Shown: in pieces, positions 317 through 13,831 of the stretch
Numbering within the stretch: position 1 is the stretch's first letter
Layout of the letters: the number at the start of each line of letters is the position of its first letter
Assembly: GCA_000004695.1 (NCBI GenBank)
Contig: CM000151.3
Coordinates: 8,128,001-8,192,000 of the forward strand
DNA length: 64,000 nucleotides
Reading direction: 5' to 3'
From: Dictyostelium discoideum
Lineage: Eukaryota
Made by a program: the position numbers and the translations under genes
Notes under the pieces: model-generated
Seen by the model: only the letters and a program-made list of their open reading frames with translations
Told to the model about the DNA's origin: nothing
Databases searched by the model: none

Positions 317-2866
<2,550 letters not shown>

Positions 2867-3040
2867 TGACCCTTTTTTATGGAAAAAAAAAAAAATAATA
2901 TTTTTTTATTTTTTTTTTTATTTTTTTTTTTATTTTTTTTTTTTTTGAAAATTTTCATCAGAATCAGAGACCTTTTTTTTTTTTTTTTTTTTTTTTTTTC
3001 GATAGTAATATAAATTGTAAATTAAAATTAATAAATAAAA

Positions 3041-3208
3041 ATGAATCGTTTAACCTTTTATGGATTATGTTTATCAGGCGCAGTTGGTATGGGTTTATTA
3101 GTAGGTTCACCAATGTATGTGTTATTATTTTAAAATAATAAATTATTATTATATTTTTTACTATTGACGCCACCACCCATCAATATTATAATATTAACCA
3201 ACAACAAA

Positions 3209-3253
<45 letters not shown>

Positions 3254-3430
3254 AACAGTTGTAGACCAGTTTTTGGTGAATTATTAGGTGCAAATAGGGA
3301 TCAAGAAAAACGTGAAAAAGAAATTAAAATTTTAATGGCTGGTGGTACAATTGACCCACACCACAACCACCACGATGATCACCATGATAGTCATGGACAT
3401 GGTCACGGTAAAATAAAAGGACACCATTAA
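3041..3430 (+). CDS. small protein (~81 aa) with a hydrophobic N-terminal segment and a His-rich C-terminal tail; two exons, about 3041..3114 and about 3259..3430
   Basis: ATG at 3041. Exon 1 (MNRLTFYGLCLSGAVGMGLLVGSP) ends at a GTATGT donor at about 3115. An AT-rich intron containing an (AAAT)n run follows, with the acceptor AG at about 3257-3258. Exon 2 encodes ICRPVFGELLGANRDQEKREKEIKILMAGGTIDPHHNHHDDHHDSHGHGHGKIKGHH*. Phase 2 is consistent across the junction. No homologue recognised. Confidence 0.4.
3211..3254. repeat. (AAAT)n microsatellite in the intron of the small His-rich gene
   Basis: aaataaataaataaataaataaataaataaataaataaa. Confidence 0.8.
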
Positions 3431-3743
3431 TACAAAATTTTAAATATCAATATATATAAAGAAATAAAAAAAAAAAAAAAATGAAAAAAAAAAAATGAAA
3501 AATATCAATAATATGTATGTCGAACATATATAAAGAAGAAATAAAATAAAACTAAAAAATGGAAAAAAAAGAAGAAATAAAGATAGTATAATATTATAAA
3601 AAATATTTAAGTATTGTTAGCAATAGCTATAATATGTGTGTGAGTGTAAAATCTTTTTGTTTTTTTTTTTTTATTATTATGAAGATAAGATATAGATAGA
3701 ATGTACAATTTTATTATTTATTATTTATTATTTATTATTATTT

Positions 3744-4149
3744 TTATAAATCTTTTGATTTTGATTCTAAATCAGTTATTATACTATCCCAATATGCGAA
3801 TCTATTTGAAATTTCTTGAATGATGTCATTGTATGATTGTACTTTTTCTTCTAATTTCTTATTCAATTGAATTGCAATCACTTCTTGTTCAAAGTGAATA
3901 TTTTCTAATGGTTTTAAAGCTTCATTTAATTTTGGAATTGATTGAGTTGAACTTGAATTTATAAATTTCTCCAATTCTCCCAACTTTTGTAAATTCCTAG
4001 CTGTACTATAAATTTCATCCTCTGCTGATAATATAATCGCTAATTTTTCAACACTATTCAATAATGATTCATTATCAACTATTTTATTAAATAATGTTTC
4101 ATTTGATTTATCTTTATATTTTTAAAATTTAAAATTAAAATTAAAATTT

Positions 4150-4193
<44 letters not shown>

Positions 4194-4569
4194 TATATAT
4201 AAAAAGTTTAAAAAACAACATACATATTAACATGAAATTATTAATTGATTCATTTTCAGATTTAATTTTATTTAAAACAGTTTTAAATTTTTCTAAAGAG
4301 TCTGTAATTGGTTCTTGTTGTTGTTGTTGTTGTAATTGTGATGTTGATATACTTGATGCTCTTGTTCTACCACCTGATGATTGAATTTGGTTTTGTTGTG
4401 ATTGTTTTTGAGCAGATGTAATTTGATTGAATGTTGGTAATGGTATTCTTAATAATGAATCTGTTGATGTTGATTGACAACCTAATAATAAAAATTCTAA
4501 TTTATTAACTCTATCTTCTAATTCATCAATTGATATATTAATTGATTCTTCACCACTGCTACTACTCAT
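3744..4569 (-). CDS. dynactin subunit 3 (p24/p22)-like coiled-coil protein; exons about 4569..4224 and about 4111..3744
   Basis: Two minus-strand ORFs joined across a GTATGT...AG intron (about 4223..4112), phase 1. The N-terminal segment IDELEDRVNKLEFLLLG, the middle segment KLAIILSAEDEIYSTARNLQKLGELEKF and the C-terminal FAYWDSIITDLE align with human DCTN3 ([51 protein letters not shown]). Confidence 0.55.
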
Positions 4570-4654
4570 TATTATTATTATTATTATTCGTTATATTTGA
4601 AAATAAATAAAGATATTATTTAAAAATGGAGTTGTTGTGTTTGTTCAAAATGAA

Positions 4655-4685
<31 letters not shown>

Positions 4686-4945
4686 TTTTGACCAAACCCC
4701 AAAAAGTTTTCCTTTTCACTTTTTTTTTTTTTTTTTTTTTCATTTTGACAAACACTAAACTATTTTTAACTTTAAAAAAAATAAATAAATAAATATTTAT
4801 TTATTTATTTTGGAATTTAATTTTAAATAGATAAAAAAAAAAAAAAAGTAATTTAAATTGATAATATTATCAAAGACTGAGTAGATAGATAATTTTGAAA
4901 TTATAAATGATTTCTTTTTTATTTTTATTTTTATTTTTATTTTTA

Positions 4946-6724
4946 TTAAATATTAATTGATATCCAAGTAAAATTATAAATTTGTGGCATATATTGATGA
5001 GAGATTAAACTCCAATCATTCCAATTAAATGGTGGACAATCAGAAGTTACAGTTGGACCATTACGAGCAACAGCAGTAAAAGAATTTACCATATCATAAT
5101 TAATTGCTTTTCCATCGATACCACCATGAGTACCATGATAAAACCAAGAGTAAATTGGATTACCACTTGGTAAAGAACCACCTTTGATATCGAATCTAGC
5201 ATTGATTGAATTACCAGGATAACCCATACTAAATGGGTCAGTTTTATATTGATTATAATCGATGATATTCATCATATCTTGTAAAGTTTCAAGTTTTGAA
5301 TGATCTCTACGGAAAATATTAGCACGTGGATTATATTCATAGGTGAAGAGGTCACCAAATTTCTCGACATAGTATGGGTAACCAAGGATATCAAACACCT
5401 CTTCAAAGTAAGGTCTATTATAACTTGGCCAATAACCTTGCTCCCAAAGTGTGAGTGTTACATCGGCAGCTTGATAACCACCTGGATATTGTTCAACGAT
5501 CCAAAGTAAATCCGATTGTAATTCAGTTGAATAAGGTGTAAACAATTTATAATCCAATACTACAAATTGAATATTATTTGTACCACTATTATTCTCAACA
5601 AATATTGATACCCATTGGAAACCATTGTTTGCCAATCTATTAGCCACTAAGTTTCTAACCCAATACATAAATGATTGTGCATTAATTTGTTGATATAAAG
5701 TTTGATTTAAAATTGTATTTAATGTTTCAGTTAAATGTAATTTCGATGGTCTAATTTGATAGAAATCATCAATTGATACCAATAAACCTGGATATGATGA
5801 GAATAAAGTTTCACTACCATAGGGTGTTGATGCAACTGGTATATTGATTCTCTTGTAAATTCTAATCATTACACTAAAATCTGCCCAACTTGTATGAGCT
5901 GACATTAAATCACTACAATTGTTTGTTAATTTAATAATTGATGTACAATGTCCAGTTGTTGCCATTAACTGTTCAACTTCTTTTCTATCCATTGGTATAA
6001 ATTCATTGTTTGGTGTGGTTGTTAATGTAACAATATCACCCATATCACCATAAAGATTAATCATATATATTTCAATAAAAGTTTTTTGATAATCTTCACC
6101 TGCTGCTGCATTGTAACCTTCATATAAACCAATTTGTTGACTCATTGCATTTCTAATTTGAATCCAATATGGATCTGTAGTTGATGATGAATTCACTCTC
6201 TCCATCATATATTCCCAATTATCAGATACAAATGTTAATGTCTCGGTTGGTATCTCCTTAATATTAGAGGTATTGAAAAAACTATTAAAATAATTTCCAG
6301 AGAATTTATAAATATATTCCCATGTTAAATAACCTTCAAGATATCCTGCTGCTTTAAATGCAATATTATCTGAAACTGTTGAAACTGTTTCAATTGATAA
6401 TTTACCCCAACCATCTTTATTCATTTCATCTTTAAAATATCCCTTTTTTTTTAATTAAAAAAAAAAAAAAAAATTAAAAATAAAAAAAATTAATATAAAT
6501 TATTTATTAATATTATTTTTTAAATTGGTCAAAAAAAAAAAAAAAAAAAGACATACCCATGCAATTGAACCTGGTATTTGTTTACCTTGGACAACTTGGA
6601 ATTGTGATGTAAGTGAATAATATTGAACATCTGAACCACTATCACTACTACTATCACTACTCGATAAAGAGTAGGAATTTGAAATTAAAAATACAATTAC
6701 AATTAATAAAATAAATAATTTCAT
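4946..6724 (-). CDS. phospholipase B-like (PLBL/LAMA family) secreted protein; exon 1 about 6724..6557 (signal peptide), exon 2 about 6442..4946
   Basis: Exon 1 encodes MKLFILLIVIVFLISNSYS (signal peptide) up to ...GSIAW and a GTATGT donor. The acceptor AG is at about 6444-6443. Exon 2 is a 492-aa ORF (GYFKDEMNKDGWGKLSIETV...) with phospholipase-B-like sequence throughout (e.g. ATTGHCTSIIKL, SWADFSVMIRIYK, VEQYPGGYQAADV). Confidence 0.85.
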
Positions 6725-6739
6725 TTTACATGTATGTTG

Positions 6740-6783
<44 letters not shown>

Positions 6784-7122
6784 CAGTAATATTTTATAAT
6801 ATTACTGCTCGGGTTTATGTGGTGCCCATGGGAAAATAAAAAAAAATTTTTTAAAAACAATTGAAAATATCTTGGTATGCCAATCAACCAGGCAAAAAAA
6901 AAAATAATGAAAAAAATAAAAAAATAAAAATTATAAAATCTAAAATAAAATAAAAATTATAAATTTTAAGATAAAATAAAAATAAAATAAAATAAAATAA
7001 AAAAAAATAATGAATTACAATTCCATATTATTAGATTATATTATTTTTAGTTTAATTATTTACAATTTTATTGATATATTTATTTTTTTTTAAATTATGA
7101 ATTATTATTTTTATTATTGATT

Positions 7123-7905: not shown

Positions 7906-8498
7906 CCAACTTTCTTTTTAATAAATTATTTAATTTATTAATTACTTAATGTTAATAAAAAAAATATTAATTAATTCTTACTTTTATGGTAATATCGAAT
8001 CTCTAAAATTAAATGGTGAGATTATTTTTTTTTTTTATTTTTATATATATTATTTTTTATTATTTTTATTTTTTTTATTTTTTTTTATTATTTTTTTATT
8101 TTTTTTATTTTTTTTGGAATGAAAAATAAAATTATTAAATTTGAAATTTATAGTTTTTTTTTAGGTTTTTTTTTTATTTATATTAAACTATATAAATTAT
8201 ATTATATTTTTAATAATTTTCTTATTTTATTTTTTAAGATCTCATTTTTTTGAAAAAAAAATACAAAACAAGATTGTGTTTGAAAAAAAAAAAAAAGGCA
8301 CATCTTCCAATTTTTATTCTTAGTAAAAAATAGGTCCAAAAAAAAAAAAAAAAAAAAAAACAAATTAAATAAAACAACACACAAATTAAAAAAAAAATTT
8401 TTATTTTATTTATTTATTTTTTAATTTGTATTTTTTTAATTCATTTTTTTTTTTAATTTATTTTTTATTTATTTAATAACATATAATTTTAAATAAAA

Positions 8499-8957
8499 AT
8501 GACAAGTAAATATTGTTGCCAACATGATGAATTTTCTTTAAGAAAGCTTAAAAAAAGTGAAGATTTCACTCTTTACCTTGATGAATTACTAGATCAAGAT
8601 GAGTTTCTAAAGATTCAGCCTGGTTACTGCACAGAGGAATGTAAACAAAAAATGAAGGAGATTTATAGAATTACATTCGAACGTTATATTGAGACTATAA
8701 ACAAATATTACAGTGACAGCAGAATTTTTGAATATAACTTGGGAAAAAATCCTCGAGGATGTGATATTTGGATGTATCGAGAATTTTTCAGTACTCCACC
8801 CCCTATCTCTCCCCAAGATGAATATGCTAGAATGGTCATAAAAGCAATGAAAGTTGGTATTAAAGATGGAAAGCCTGTTAGATTATGTGAATTGCCACCT
8901 GGTGTACAATGTGATTTTGATGCAAAAAACCTACCTGATTCTGAAGAAGATGAATAG
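8499..8957 (+). CDS. hypothetical 152-aa protein with codon usage atypical for this genome
   Basis: Intact ATG-to-TAG ORF (MTSKYCCQHDEFSLRKLKK...). It uses cag, gag, aag, cga, ccc and ggt codons much more often than neighbouring genes, and local G+C is visibly higher. No recognisable domain. Confidence 0.45.
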   Translation: MTSKYCCQHDEFSLRKLKKSEDFTLYLDELLDQDEFLKIQPGYCTEECKQKMKEIYRITFERYIETINKYYSDSRIFEYNLGKNPRGCDIWMYREFFSTPPPISPQDEYARMVIKAMKVGIKDGKPVRLCELPPGVQCDFDAKNLPDSEEDE

Positions 8958-9149
8958 AAAAATAAGTGTTAATTAAATAAAAAGAACTGTTTTAAATTTT
9001 TTTATTTTATTTTACTTTTATTTTTTTTTATAACTCTTATATAAGAGAAGTAGTTTATTTTTTTTTTAATTTTTAATATTTTTTTTTTATTTCTTTTAAT
9101 TATTTTTTTTTTTCTTTTTTTATTTCTTGCACCTCTTTTAGGTGCAAAG

Positions 9150-9365
9150 TTACCATATATATCGTTGAGCTTCTTGTGCAGTTGCAAAGGTTCTAATTAG
9201 CTCTTGTTTTTCTCTAAGTCTTTGCAATCGTCTTCTTTCACTTTCTTCTTGCATCAACCTTCTTCTTTCTTCTTGTTCAGCCAATCTTTGTTGTGTTTTT
9301 TTAATTTTTATTAATTTTACCGTTTCAGGGTCTGCTTCAATTTCTTTTTTTTGATGGGCACCCAT
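9150..9365 (-). CDS. hypothetical small (71 aa) Glu/Arg/Gln-rich coiled-coil protein
   Basis: ORF MGAHQKKEIEADPETVKLIKIKKTQQRLAEQEERRRLMQEESERRRLQRLREKQELIRTFATAQEAQRYIW, convergent with the 3' end of 8499..8957. No introns evident. Confidence 0.3.
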   Translation of the reverse strand: MGAHQKKEIEADPETVKLIKIKKTQQRLAEQEERRRLMQEESERRRLQRLREKQELIRTFATAQEAQRYIW

Positions 9366-9429
9366 CGTTTTTTTTTAAAAAGTAAACCTAATGATTTATA
9401 CATGTTTATATTTAATAATTGAGAATTTT

Positions 9430-9900
9430 TATTTTATGACATTGGTTTTGAATTATTTTTAAAAAAATCATTTTAAATTTTCTTTGATTCGTTACATTTT
9501 TGTTTCTATCTAATGATCATTTTCCAATGATTTTATATTAATGGTCATTGGAAAATCCTTTAGCTAGGAATTCTATAGAGAATCATTGAGTAAATAATGG
9601 TTTCTATAGGAAATCTTTAAACAACCATTAAAAATCGTTGATTTTTCTTTGGCTCAATTTTTAATAGTTTTCTATGTAATGGTCACATCTATACCGTTAT
9701 CAATCTAAAACCATTGGAAATAACAATATCTAATGATTTTCAATAAAGTTCAATAAAATTATAAAAAAATGAAAATAATGGATTTCATTAAAAGAATTTT
9801 TTTAAAATAAGATTAAAAATTTTATTTAAAGAATTTTTTTATTGATTTCCATAAGGAAACCATTATATGATTTTTTTTTTTTGTTTTTTTTTTTTTTATA
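9430..9900. repeat. cluster of short imperfect inverted/direct repeats built on a CCATTGGAAA / TTTCCAATGG-type core
   Basis: Roughly 8 copies: gatcattttccaatgatttt, aatggtcattggaaaatcc, aatggtttctataggaaatc, aaccattaaaaatcgttgatttttc, aatggtcacatctataccgttatc, aaaccattggaaataacaa, aatggatttcattaaaag, gatttccataaggaaaccatta. Several pairs are reverse complements of each other. The region is noticeably less AT-rich than normal intergenic DNA. Confidence 0.6.
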
Positions 9901-10020
9901 AAAATGAGAAAACTATTGGTACTTTATTATAATTAAAATAAAATAAATATTAATAAATGTAAAACTTTATAAAATAAATATTATTATAATAAAAGTAATA
10001 ATAAGGATAGATTGATTTGA

Positions 10021-10075
10021 TTTCTTGAAATTAATAACGAAATTAATAACGAAATTAATAACGAAATTAATTTGA
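10021..10075. repeat. 12-bp tandem repeat (cgaaattaataa) x3 flanked by the direct repeat tttgatttct
   Basis: gatttgatttcttgaaattaataacgaaattaataacgaaattaataacgaaattaatttgatttct. Confidence 0.7.
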
Positions 10076-11056
10076 TTTCTAAAAAATGTTTATTTTTTTT
10101 TCTATTTTTAGTGTAAAAAAGGGGGAAATAATTTAATTCATCAGTGAGCTGTCATTTTTAGTTTTGAACGTTTTGCATCATCAGATTCCAATGTTTGACT
10201 ATAAATATTTTCTTTACTTTTAATCTCTTGTTTAATTATTCTCTATCACGTTTTGGTTTCATTAGACCCTTGTTATATTCCAATGCCGATGATTCATTAA
10301 TACGGTCAAACTCTTTTTGAAAAGGTGTAGGTGGTACTTTCTTTAATTTTTCGGTGAACAAAACCGATGATGATTTATCACCAGTTATAGTTTTTGAAAG
10401 TTTTTTCCTATCGATTGGCATCTCCAATGTTGAACCTTTTTTTTATAATTTTCTTTTAAATCCATTCAAATTCATTTTTTTAAAAAAAATTATTCAATCA
10501 TTTTTTTAAAAAAAAAAAAATTTAAACATTAATTAAAATTATATTTTAGAAATAAAAAAGAAAAAAATGGAGCTTTTAATTCCATTAAGTTTATTGGGAT
10601 TATATTTATTTTCAGGGACAAGAGATTCAGTTCATAAGGGAGAAGTTAAAGATGACTTGAAAGAGAAACCTATAAAAGTTAATTTTAATTTAACTGACTC
10701 TACAAAAGTTGACCATAAAACTCATCTCAAACAGTACAGTTCATTAAAACCAGGTGACACATTGGAAATATTATAACAAAAACATTTAGATCACTCTACG
10801 AAAGATTTAAAACACCCAGTATCCATTATCAATGATAAGTCTGACAGTAAAATTCATCTTAAACGAACATACCGGAAAAGTTAAAGTTAAATTTATTGAT
10901 CATACAATTCGTAGTGATGTTAGACCAATCTCATTTGGAATTAATAAAAAATAATTTATTTTCTAAAAAAAAAAAAAAAATTCTCTTTATTATTTATTAT
11001 TTATTTTTAAAATTAGTTTTGTTTTTTTAAAAAAAAAAAAAAAAGAAAGAAAAAAA

Positions 11057-12300
11057 ATGGGTATCAGTGATCAAATCAATAGTAATTTATCAAGTCAATC
11101 TCCATTTACTGTAAGTACAAACCCAAGTGATTCAATGTTTCTTCCAACAAACAGAATTGCAAAAACAGCAGATTGGAAAGAGGAGAAAAAATATTACTAT
11201 CCAAAAGAATCGATTCAAAGTATTTATGAAGGTACAACAGTTCGTATCGTAATCGATAAACAAAATGGTAGACTTTATGGTTTGGAAATGGTAGTTGAAA
11301 TTGGACCATTGACTGCAAATGGTGCTACATTTACACGTCTCTGTAGGGATGTTGCTCATTCGATGGCCTATAGTGTTTCAATATGGAATGGTAATAATGA
11401 AATTCATAGACTTCATATGGATCATGAAAGAATTGAGATGGTTTTAACTAAATTAAAACATGAAAGGGACATGGAAGATAAGATGGCCGGTTACTATGAT
11501 GATGCGACACGTACTGCATTGGGTGCAACAAAACAAAAATTAATTTTTGATTTGAATTTCTTTCATACTGTCCACACTTCTGATGCACTCTATTTAAATG
11601 CCTGGCATTGAAATACACTTATCAAATTAAGATCAATCCTTTAAGAAGATGGGTAGAAACCGATGGTACTGATCCAAAAGCTAATGATTTCAAAGTTTAT
11701 CTTCGTGCTGATATTATTCATACACCACAGGATGAATATCGTATAGTTCATAATACTATCAACACTGGTACTGGTATTTTTTCACCAATTGAACATACAG
11801 AGATGAAAGAGCGTGTAGTACTCAACGTTGGTGAATCAAAACATTATGTTCAATTAACAAACATTATTGGTAATGGTCGTTCTTATTTTGTTGTTTTAAG
11901 AAGATTGGCAGACACTGAAAATCCAAAAGCACCAAGATATGATGATTTCATGCCATGGGAAAATATGCGTTTATTACATGCCGGTAATAAGGAAGTTCAT
12001 TTACCACATAATAATATGATGGATTGTTTTAAACATTTAAAGCATCGTTTTCATTTTGATGCATCCTACAATGATGATAAATCTCCAAACAGTATGAATA
12101 TTTATGGCTTCAGTTTTTCAGCTAATCCTATCGATGTCAAAAATCGAACAGGTTGTTTTTCATTCTCACAAGCAAACAATCTTCAATTGGAAGTAACAAC
12201 AAAAACTCTAACTGAACCATGGGTACTCGATTTTTATACAGCATCCACTCAAATCATTCAACAATCTGGTAACACAGCAAAAACAATTCTCCATTATTAA
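11057..12300 (+). CDS. hypothetical ~413-aa protein encoded as two abutting ORFs (11057..11611 and about 11608..12300) related by an apparent -1 frameshift; possibly a pseudogene or mobile-element ORF
   Basis: ORF 1 (184 aa, MGISDQINSNLSSQSPF...ALYLNAWH*) ends at TGA 11609-11611. ORF 2 (230 aa, KYTYQIKINPLRRWVETDG...TILHY*) is open from the same point in the -1 frame and has no ATG of its own (the track's M is a TTG). There is no GT...AG intron of plausible size between them. Codon usage is somewhat less AT-biased than typical genes here. Confidence 0.4.
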
Positions 12301-12440
12301 AAAAAAAAATAAAAAAGTATAAAAATAAAATTTTTTTTTTTTTTTATTTAAAATTGATAAAGAATTTTTTTATTAAAAATTAAGTCTATCGTTTCGTCGT
12401 TATCTTCTTTATCTTCGTTATCGTTGTCGATGGCATTGGT

Positions 12441-13443
12441 CTATAGATTATCTACTGATTTTTTAAAGATTTTTTTCTTTAGTTTTTTCATTTCTTTCTT
12501 TTTAGTTTTTTCCTCCTGAATTAACCACCACCCAGGGCATACTGAATCAGTGGGTAATGAACCCCTCTTTATATCAAAACGAGGCAAATCTTTAAATTGA
12601 TGGTATAGATTCGTATACTCATAAGGAGTGTATCTAAAGATTTCAAATTCTTTAAAAGAACTACCGATAGTAGACTTGTGTTTGGATGATAAAAACAAAT
12701 TTTTAAATTCAAACCATTATCACCTGGCGATAAAACTTCATGAAGTAATAATGTTTCTTTAAATTCCCATAGAAATATGTGATGATTCCTATCATTTTCA
12801 TTACAAACTCTACAATTCATTAGCTCCCGTTTCCTTAGAAGATCGATTAAAACCTTCCAATGTTCATCAATTTTCTCAAGTTTATGATTAAGAAAAAAAG
12901 ATTCCAGAGCAATTTTTATATGATGTAGCCGATTATCAAATCTATAAAGATGTTCTCAAACTTAATACAGTAAAAATTGGAAAGGATTTGGATGGAAAAC
13001 AATGTTTTATTCATGAGTTTGGTTCTTATGGTGACCGTATGGTTGGAGCATTGGTTGGTAGTGATCTCTTGGGTGGTTATAGTACTTTCTTTGGAATAAT
13101 TGTTTCGGTTTTCATAAAGAATAAGGACATTTCATTAAAATAATTCCTTCCATTGGTTAAAATCGATAGAGATTATACTGTTCCTGAAATGTTTGTTCTT
13201 TACAAAGAACTTAGATCAACTGGTCAATTTGCAAAATCACCAAATCTTTACAAATTTTATTGTTCATTACTTTGGCTCTTGGTAAATATTCATGAACAAC
13301 TTAGTGACGATGGTAAAAATGGTTTCGAATCTCAAGCGATCAACTTACCTCTTTGCAATTATATATTGGTGAATCTAAACACAGCGATTCCTTCGAAATT
13401 CTTTATTTTTTTTTTTTTTTTAATAACATCGCTCAATTTATAA
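12441..13443. pseudogene. degenerate, frameshifted ORF fragments on both strands immediately upstream of the tRNA gene; candidate mobile-element or foreign-gene remnants
   Basis: Minus-strand ORFs 12569..12820 and 12441..12698 overlap in different frames, so no intron can join them. Plus-strand fragments sit at about 12896..13140 (KKIPEQFLYDVADYQIYKDVLKLNTVKIGKDLDGKQCFIHEFGSYGDRMVGALVGSDLLGGYSTFFGIIVSVFIKNKDISLK*) and 13153..13443. Several stops and frameshifts separate the pieces, and CG-containing codons are present. Confidence 0.3.
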
Positions 13444-13486
13444 AATTCTTTATTATGTTTGGTTAAAATTGAAAAAAATTATCAAA

Positions 13487-13559
13487 GGGGATGTAGCTCA
13501 GATGGTAGAGCGCTCGCTTAGCATGCGAGAGGTAAAGGGATCGATACCCTTCTTCTCCA
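13487..13559 (+). tRNA. tRNA-Ala (anticodon AGC)
   Basis: GGGGATGTAGCTCAGATGGTAGAGCGCTCGCTTAGCATGCGAGAGGTAAAGGGATCGATACCCTTCTTCTCCA. This is a canonical eukaryotic tRNA-Ala(AGC) 5' two-thirds: A box TAGCTCAGATGG, anticodon loop CTTAGCATG, and G3:U70. The T stem is AAGGG/CCCTT, with compensatory changes relative to the common CGGGG/CCCCG. There is one acceptor mismatch (T6:T67). A T6 Pol III terminator follows directly. Confidence 0.8.
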
Positions 13560-13566
13560 TTTTTTG
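13560..13566 (+). terminator. RNA polymerase III terminator (T-run) immediately 3' of tRNA-Ala
   Basis: tttttt directly after the discriminator base. Confidence 0.7.
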
Positions 13567-13585
13567 GGCCGACGATATGAGATCG

Positions 13586-13599
13586 CAGGTTCGATTCCT
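13586..13599 (+). promoter_or_regulatory. extra (external) B box downstream of the tRNA gene
   Basis: caGGTTCGATTCCt lies about 27 nt after the tRNA 3' end. It duplicates the B-box consensus GGTTCGANTCC. External B boxes are a known feature of many D. discoideum tRNA genes. Confidence 0.6.
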
Positions 13600-13831
13600 A
13601 ATTTTATTATCAACAAATTTGAAATGTTTATAAATTTAACTTTACTCGAAAAGAGTTCAATTCAAACTTTAATAATATATGATTTGTAATAATAGTATAT
13701 TTAAATTATCTACTAAAAATTTCAATTTTTATTCATTAAAGACTATTTTAGTACCAATTAATAATATTACTTTTATTAGTTCATTAGATCAAGCATTTTA
13801 TAAATTTCAAAAATAAATAAAAAATAATAAT

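Follow-up and report, generated by a model that had tools for sequence, protein, structure and literature searches.

Two overlapping reading frames on chromosome 2

The 64,000-nucleotide stretch of the Dictyostelium discoideum AX4 reference genome analyzed here (GCA_000004695.1, contig CM000151.3, positions 8,128,001 to 8,192,000 of the forward strand) is referred to below as the window, and all window coordinates count from its first letter. It has a G+C content of ~20% and contains, at 11057-12300, two overlapping open reading frames (ORFs) in a -1 frame relationship. ORF1 extends from the ATG at 11057 to the TGA at 11609-11611 and encodes 184 amino acids (aa) with the C-terminus LYLNAWH*; its product is identical to P0053 (Q8MN46) of the AX4 protein set. 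The ORF2 frame opens at 11584, directly after a TGA at 11581-11583, and has its earliest in-frame ATG at 11803, leaving ~65 leading codons without an ATG of their own. Part of ORF2 is annotated as DDB_G0277467 (P0003). An earlier note, made from the letters alone, had described the end of ORF1, the -1 offset of the second frame and the fact that this frame is already open at the ORF1 stop without a start of its own, all of which our ORF analysis reproduced. Given the ORF1 stop and the limits of the ORF2 frame, any switch between frames is confined to the 28-nucleotide (nt) overlap at 11584-11611. The joined pair is non-repetitive, as the earlier note had also observed, and has homologues along its full length, and is therefore far beyond what chance would produce; the reconstructed protein is 414 aa long rather than the 413 aa first given. 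Our analysis makes it very probable that ORF1 and ORF2 are the two halves of one dead 414-codon gene for a double jelly-roll capsid protein, lying within a decayed virus-derived element on AX4 chromosome 2. The features at the break are as follows.

11057-11611, forward strand: ORF1 (DDB_G0277465 in AX4), capsid codons 1-182, followed by two codons out of frame and the TGA stop; aligns collinearly with the intact 414-aa copies
11584-12300, forward strand: ORF2 frame, -1 relative to ORF1, capsid codons 184-414, with TAA 12298-12300 at its end
11603-11604, forward strand: disabling lesion, TG for ACA at codon 183 (one-base deletion plus two substitutions), from the DNA alignment, the indel list and the orthologous locus L012
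11570-11631, forward strand: formal GT...AG pair of 62 nt that restores the frame, used as an intron in gene model P0048; judged not real
11593-11599, forward strand: slippery heptamer T_TTA_AAT of the canonical X_XXY_YYZ form in the ORF1 frame, conserved in intact copies; judged coincidental

Intact copies map the lesion to codon 183

We used the joined two-frame translation as a query against 5.8 billion proteins. One match, P0001 from D. cf. discoideum, is 414 aa long and 95% identical across 100% of the query, and the same search also returned a copy from D. dimigraforme; both proteins run uninterrupted across the junction as ...LYLNATALEYTYQ.... Intact single-frame 414-aa copies that are 95-97% identical occur in D. 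cf. discoideum (loci L001 and L002 plus three more protein records, P0049), and a second D. discoideum strain (GCA_054859385.1) has two (P0047; loci L010 and L011). In at least nine intact 414-aa copies the two ORFs correspond to collinear halves, and related copies of the gene are also found in D. dimigraforme.

The DNA alignment places the difference exactly, with AAT GCC ACA GCA TTG GAA in the intact copies and AAT GCC -TG GCA TTG AAA in the window. This is the sole indel or premature stop in the 1,245-nt capsid gene relative to the intact copies, and the ORF2 part is otherwise free of indels and in-frame stops. Codon 183 changed from ACA to TG in the AX4 lineage with the loss of one base, moving the last 231 codons into the -1 frame. 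Translation of any transcript would then end at the ORF1 stop and, with no recoding, would give a 184-aa fragment that stops within the first jelly roll. Probably no functional product is made.

Not all other copies are intact. One D. dimigraforme copy (L003 10001-11116) is also dead, with a 132-nt deletion and a premature stop (...CFKH*) next to a split VLTF3-like gene, and a second one (P0051, 400 aa) differs at its C-terminus. In D. cf. discoideum, the 390-aa model P0004 (L007 10001-11277) is capsid-like in its initial 52 residues only and continues as low-complexity, coiled-coil-like sequence; it sits behind the same two upstream genes and is a chimeric or rearranged third capsid copy.

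The intact gene encodes a double jelly-roll major capsid protein

An exhaustive HMMER search recovered 40 relatives, most of them 400-430 aa long. The Pfam domain Capsid_N was matched by 18 of 34 family members (best E-value 3.7e-11) and Capsid_NCLDV by 4 of 34; the AX4 reconstruction alone scores below the Pfam cut-off (21.9 vs 24 bits, E = 1.4e-4). When the family profile was compared with the sequences of the Protein Data Bank (PDB), it matched the major capsid protein (MCP) of Emiliania huxleyi virus 201 (EhV-201) at 4.7e-26 and the MCPs of Paramecium bursaria chlorella virus 1 (PBCV-1) at 6e-23 to 4e-8. The family alignment found five matches only in the 5.8-billion-protein set, none of them from a named virus.

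The AlphaFold2 model of the intact orthologue P0001 has a mean predicted local distance difference test (pLDDT) of 83 and a predicted template-modelling (pTM) score of 0.84, and consists of two consecutive beta-sandwiches. Its top Foldseek matches in the PDB are the capsid proteins of PBCV-1, EhV-201, Singapore grouper iridovirus (SGIV), Faustovirus and African swine fever virus, all at a probability of 1.00, with E-values of 1e-22 to 1e-15 and query-normalised TM-scores of 0.63-0.75. Giant-virus capsid proteins also rank top when predicted viral structures are searched. The product of the intact gene is a double jelly-roll MCP of the Nucleocytoviricota type; a jelly-roll capsid fold was among the folds that the earlier note had suggested looking for, and it was found both by profile and by predicted structure. 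In the P0001 model residue 183, where the frame breaks, lies after strand 160-165 and before strand 187-193 of the first jelly roll, and neither ORF therefore encodes a complete domain.

The protein shares with the Nucleocytoviricota MCPs (PBCV-1 Vp54, EhV-201 and the iridovirus SGIV) the double jelly-roll fold and a similar length (414 aa vs ~437 in Vp54), with Foldseek query-normalised TM-scores of 0.7-0.75 and profile matches to EhV-201 and PBCV-1 of 1e-26 to 1e-9, and the Dictyostelium capsid gene adjoins a gene for a VLTF3-like protein. On the other hand, the protein is only 10-16% identical to any solved or predicted viral capsid protein, and the window gene lies in a chromosome among host genes and carries a frameshift. 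Neither a Dictyostelium capsid gene nor the identifiers DDB_G0277465 and DDB_G0277467 turned up in the literature searched. A capsid-gene fragment is also present in Acytostelium, another dictyostelid.

Decay of the surrounding element and relaxed selection

Homology to the element-bearing loci of other genomes is limited to window 8493-13397, and two blocks of ~5.6 kilobases (kb) and ~1.5 kb that are present at the intact loci are absent. The capsid gene lies in a ~5-kb decayed fragment, at ~8.5-13.4 kb, of an element that is probably virus-derived; the fragment is flanked by the host genes for phospholipase B, a WD40 protein, a lipase and acyl-CoA oxidase. The following features accompany it.

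8499-8957, forward strand: intact gene for a 152-aa Cys-rich protein that marks the left-hand limit of the homology and is 81% identical at the aa level to L001 1951-2406
10131-10487, reverse strand: N-terminal remnant (~118 codons) of a 746-781-aa element gene, with a TAA nonsense codon and 1-nt and 8-nt deletions; remainder deleted
10567-10954, forward strand: remnant of a 129-aa element gene, AAA>TAA at 10774-10776 (codon 70) and, at 10860, a deletion of 2 nt
12351-12883, reverse strand: C-terminal remnant of the VLTF3-like gene, ~177 codons long and carrying TCG>TAG as well as a 1-nt deletion near 12677; N-terminal ~290 codons deleted
12874-13397, forward strand: internal remnant of a 364-366-aa element gene, two TAA nonsense codons and a 1-nt deletion; both ends gone
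13487-13559, forward strand: tRNA-Ala(AGC), 90 bp past the right edge of the relic; context only

All four neighbouring element genes are truncated, with 10 nonsense and frameshift lesions in total. Using D. dimigraforme as the outgroup, we assigned the changes in the capsid gene to branches. The AX4 branch carries 8 nonsynonymous and 5 synonymous changes (ratio of nonsynonymous to synonymous rates, dN/dS, ~0.41), and all other branches carry 7 nonsynonymous and 45 synonymous changes (dN/dS ~0.04). The difference is significant (Fisher p = 0.0009), and selection is relaxed on the AX4 branch. With intact 414-aa copies, one mapped deleted base, relaxed selection and broken neighbours, the proposal in the earlier note of a once-functional gene of ~46 kDa that is now a frameshifted pseudogene is supported.

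The Cys-rich 152-aa protein at 8499-8957 (motif C..EC..KM) and a 71-aa Arg/Glu-rich ORF at 9150-9365 on the reverse strand belong to small gene families whose members recur in tandem around the intact elements of other strains (L001, L002 and L003). Integration targeted to the tRNA gene was considered and is unsupported, as intact copies lack an adjacent tRNA, and the proximity of tRNA-Ala to the relic may be coincidental.

Alternative explanations for the two frames

The AX4 reference could contain a sequencing or assembly indel in a gene that is truly intact at this locus. Intact copies in other strains and species are consistent with that possibility, as is the difference in length of one base, and exact look-ups of the ORF1 product and of two ORF2 versions in an assembly index found no encoding contig. 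The lesion is nevertheless not an assembly indel, because an independent 2025 assembly (GCA_054883475.1) has the identical lesion. In that assembly the syntenic orthologous locus is L012, whose alignment to window 1033-23850 has 99.72% identity and 5 mismatches. Both loci contain the genes for phospholipase B, the 152-aa protein, the WD40 protein, the lipase and acyl-CoA oxidase, and the 71-mer spanning the lesion site is identical in the two; the annotators of the 2025 assembly bridged the break by an invented intron in model P0048. In a divergent Logan assembly, P0050 is ORF2 as a free-standing 228-aa ORF with the same TTG start and has five differences from AX4, yet it keeps the AX4-lineage Lys186. 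The change from ACA to TG is complex and lies outside any homopolymer run, and the flanking remnants contain five more indels and five nonsense codons. The identity at L012 excludes a sequencing or assembly error at this lesion, and we regard the sequencing indel offered in the earlier note as extremely unlikely. The current AX4 annotation treats the pair as two separate functional genes, DDB_G0277465 and DDB_G0277467, both with proteins in the AX4 protein set, and ORF1 has an ATG of its own with an A-rich upstream region. Against two genes, at least nine intact copies have the ORFs joined collinearly in a single 414-aa protein, a complete jelly roll is found in neither half, and DDB_G0277467 is a chimeric model, which makes this reading highly improbable as well. 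Another way to remove the frameshift is a 62-nt spliceosomal intron at 11570-11631 that would leave a 393-aa protein. The earlier note had dismissed an intron on the grounds that the sequence lacks any GT...AG of 50 nt or more, which is incorrect, as 49 frame-restoring GT...AG pairs of 40-400 nt are present; its conclusion is very probably right for other reasons. The 62-nt candidate has GT...AG boundaries and a frame-restoring length, and the deposited annotation P0048 (L012 10001-12760), a 591-aa model with AX4 residues, uses exactly that junction, jumping from FFHT to INPLRR. However, its donor is GTCCAC and its G+C content is 0.35 (35%), and D. discoideum introns, according to the genome paper, reportedly have ~87% A+T and a GTAAGT-like donor. 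The segment is coding, collinear and conserved in all intact copies, and with its excision 21 residues would be lost, among them the first jelly roll's strand 187-193. We consider such an intron very unlikely.

The remaining alternative is that ribosomes slip at U_UUA_AAU (11593-11599) into ORF2 and make a 414-aa capsid-like protein (...LYLN-CLALKYTYQ...). Viral -1 frameshift sites combine an X_XXY_YYZ heptamer, e.g., the coronavirus U_UUA_AAC, with a downstream pseudoknot or stem-loop, and the locus resembles them in having U_UUA_AAU in the zero frame shortly before the zero-frame stop and a downstream ORF in the -1 frame. The canonical heptamer is located just 5' of the slippery-looking string that the earlier note quoted. 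It is in the ORF1 frame and falls within the overlap of 28 nt, with the lesion 4 nt 3' of it; the slipped product would be only three residues off the ancestral protein, and lesions are far scarcer in the capsid gene than in its neighbours. The heptamer is, however, unchanged in every intact copy aligned as DNA, where it encodes Tyr-Leu-Asn and no shift is required; the split into two frames is therefore a derived state rather than a conserved one, and every intact homologue reads in a single frame. No stimulatory RNA structure was found 3' of the heptamer, unlike at viral sites: the 101 nt at 11600-11700 fold with a minimum free energy of -12.3 kcal/mol vs a shuffle mean of -14.6 (z = +0.78), and 151 of 200 shuffled sequences are equally or more stable. 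In the long open frames of this AT-rich window, 2.2% of in-frame positions hold such a heptamer, which gives a 14% probability (P = 0.14) that one or more would occur among the 7 positions available in the overlap. The neighbouring element genes are also all dead, and selection is relaxed. We therefore place very little belief in the programmed -1 frameshift that the earlier note had raised, and the slippery heptamer is probably fortuitous.

Several observations weigh against the view that ORF1 and ORF2 are simply halves of a dead gene. The dN/dS of 0.41 on the AX4 branch is not significantly different from 1 (p = 0.16), yet it is not clearly neutral, and the capsid gene may have been under constraint until recently. 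It has 1 disabling lesion in 1,245 nt vs 10 in 1,805 nt in the neighbours, at whose rate ~6.9 would be expected in the capsid gene (Poisson P ~0.008), which may reflect selection that lasted longer than on the neighbours, or else chance. Judging from the position of the lesion 4 nt 3' of a canonical heptamer, low-level -1 slippage may give a near-wild-type protein. The host may have retained the capsid gene after its neighbours died, and AX4 may be partly rescued by slippage at U_UUA_AAU. With no more than 5 mismatches to the window over 22.8 kb, L012 may come from the same laboratory lineage; it therefore excludes a sequencing error, not a mutation that is confined to the lineage.

Intact elements in other strains and relatives

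The AX4 fragment is ~96% identical to the intact copies of strain GCA_054859385.1, which are themselves 98.5-98.7% identical to the D. cf. discoideum copies and lie at a non-syntenic, retrotransposon-rich site. Together, this identity and the non-synteny indicate that the window fragment is older and was placed separately. The copies of GCA_054859385.1 (L010 and L011) are on contig JBTAPF010000019.1 at 2.49-2.54 Mb, and L001, L002 and L007 are in the last 76 kb of D. cf. discoideum contig JBTAPH010000039.1. In these two genomes the intact blocks (large protein, 129-aa protein, capsid gene and VLTF3-like gene) are present in at least two copies, which are 99.6-99.7% identical within a genome and lie beside retrotransposons. 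Among the members listed in the protein cluster, the AX4-like assembly is represented only by the relic gene model P0048. These observations suggest a presence/absence polymorphism of the blocks within the species.

At the intact loci the capsid gene is followed by the gene for a 470-aa VLTF3-like protein on the opposite strand. This protein and two homologues together match Pfam Pox_VLTF3 alone, at the cut-off (25.0 vs 25 bits), and the AlphaFold2 model, made from three sequences, has a pLDDT of 38, which is too low for use. VLTF3 is regarded as diagnostic of an affinity with Nucleocytoviricota (Yutin et al. 2024, PMC11253617). Pfam scans of 10 neighbours in L002/L001, 10 L006 proteins and 10 L004 proteins identified almost nothing besides VLTF3.

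A divergent paralogous element is present on the 58-kb D. cf. discoideum contig JBTAPH010000006.1 (L006 and L009, sampled at positions 1-30068). Its capsid protein is 31% and its VLTF3-like protein 43% identical, and the gene order is kept, with the large protein, a 127-aa protein and then the capsid gene. It also encodes a YqaJ nuclease (2e-25) and has weak matches to deoxynucleoside kinase and prim-pol. A tyrosine recombinase is encoded by the same element, as is a small MTSVYGDLILQDGAKVIDKSG... protein that is present as four tandem paralogues. Two further ORFs of L006 are candidates at the motif level, one at 3440-3976 on the reverse strand with HUH-like motifs (FLLTINT and HSHTVIK) and one at 4612-4971 on the reverse strand with a RuvC-like N-terminus (IIGIDPGIKNLG); neither had a meaningful Pfam or PDB sequence match. 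A packaging-ATPase P-loop of the A32 type was not found in the sampled loci, of which the 58-kb contig was covered at 1-30068.

Metagenomic relatives of the capsid protein are located on gene-dense contigs of 35.3 kb and 36.4 kb. On the 36.4-kb contig (L004, ENA ERZ2485795 NODE_934), a 1,680-aa protein at 1835-6877 on the reverse strand and the N-terminal part of the 746-781-aa neighbour of the Dictyostelium capsid gene are homologous (28% over 203 aa, E = 5e-9), and the similarity indicates a probable second conserved gene of a virion module. Scans of IMG/VR with three sub-alignments of the family found no relatives.

Comparison with known virus groups

Mriyaviruses (Yaravirus and the Pleurochrysis endemic viruses) are 35-45-kb relatives of giant viruses, and an HUH endonuclease, a packaging ATPase, VLTF2 and RuvC are features conserved throughout the Mriyaviricetes (Yaraviridae and Gamadviridae). 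Like mriyaviruses, the Dictyostelium elements have a small giant-virus-type capsid protein, here beside a candidate VLTF3 (the VLTF3-like protein at the Pfam cut-off), and the metagenomic relatives are on contigs of 35.3 kb and 36.4 kb, comparable to the 35-45 kb of mriyaviruses. The YqaJ-type nuclease and the prim-pol-like protein of the divergent element also have counterparts in the Yaravirus gene list. The comparison is one of gene content, with HUH and RuvC at motif level and the packaging-ATPase P-loop not found in the sampled loci; it suggests a possible relationship of the Dictyostelium element to mriyaviruses. In the Yaravirus preprint, the best match of gene 28 is from a dictyostelid.

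The locus also resembles the endogenous giant-virus-like insertions of protists, e.g., Acanthamoeba, in having a hallmark gene in a chromosome within a decayed fragment with pseudogenised neighbours; in the Dictyostelium case, intact multi-copy versions exist in related strains. D. discoideum was among the organisms screened by Maumus and Blanc (2016, PMC5203793), with 61 virus-like proteins reported, and the part of that article considered here does not mention a capsid gene for this species.

Implications for annotation and for viruses of Dictyostelium

The frameshift itself is that of an ordinary pseudogene and needs no new mechanism. The parts worth pursuing are the identity of the gene, the errors in its annotation and the relatives that are intact and polymorphic among strains. 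In the reference, DDB_G0277465 and DDB_G0277467, both labelled "hypothetical protein", are the halves of a broken viral capsid gene, and their re-annotation is due. The DDB_G0277467 model (window 11803-13816) begins at an internal Met of ORF2 and splices across the antisense VLTF3-like remnant and another pseudogene remnant and past the tRNA gene. Both it and P0048 look like prediction artefacts over pseudogene debris, and the false intron over the break is now entering gene predictions in new assemblies.

The element probably derives from an infecting virus, and the virus lineage behind the relic appears to be undescribed. To our knowledge, no Dictyostelium virus has been isolated so far. The intact copies are multi-copy and strain-polymorphic, with two in one wild-type D. 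discoideum assembly, the capsid gene is under strong purifying selection (dN/dS ~0.04), and relatives occur on ~35-kb gene-dense metagenomic contigs. These findings support, tentatively and at somewhat less than even chances, the idea that the relic and its intact relatives belong to a lineage of small giant-virus-like viruses that is as yet undescribed, may be related to mriyaviruses and infects or recently infected Dictyostelium. The intact, multi-copy and strain-polymorphic blocks of capsid and VLTF3 genes in wild D. discoideum and its sister species offer a handle on the question of whether this amoeba hosts, or until recently hosted, a DNA virus of the giant-virus lineage.

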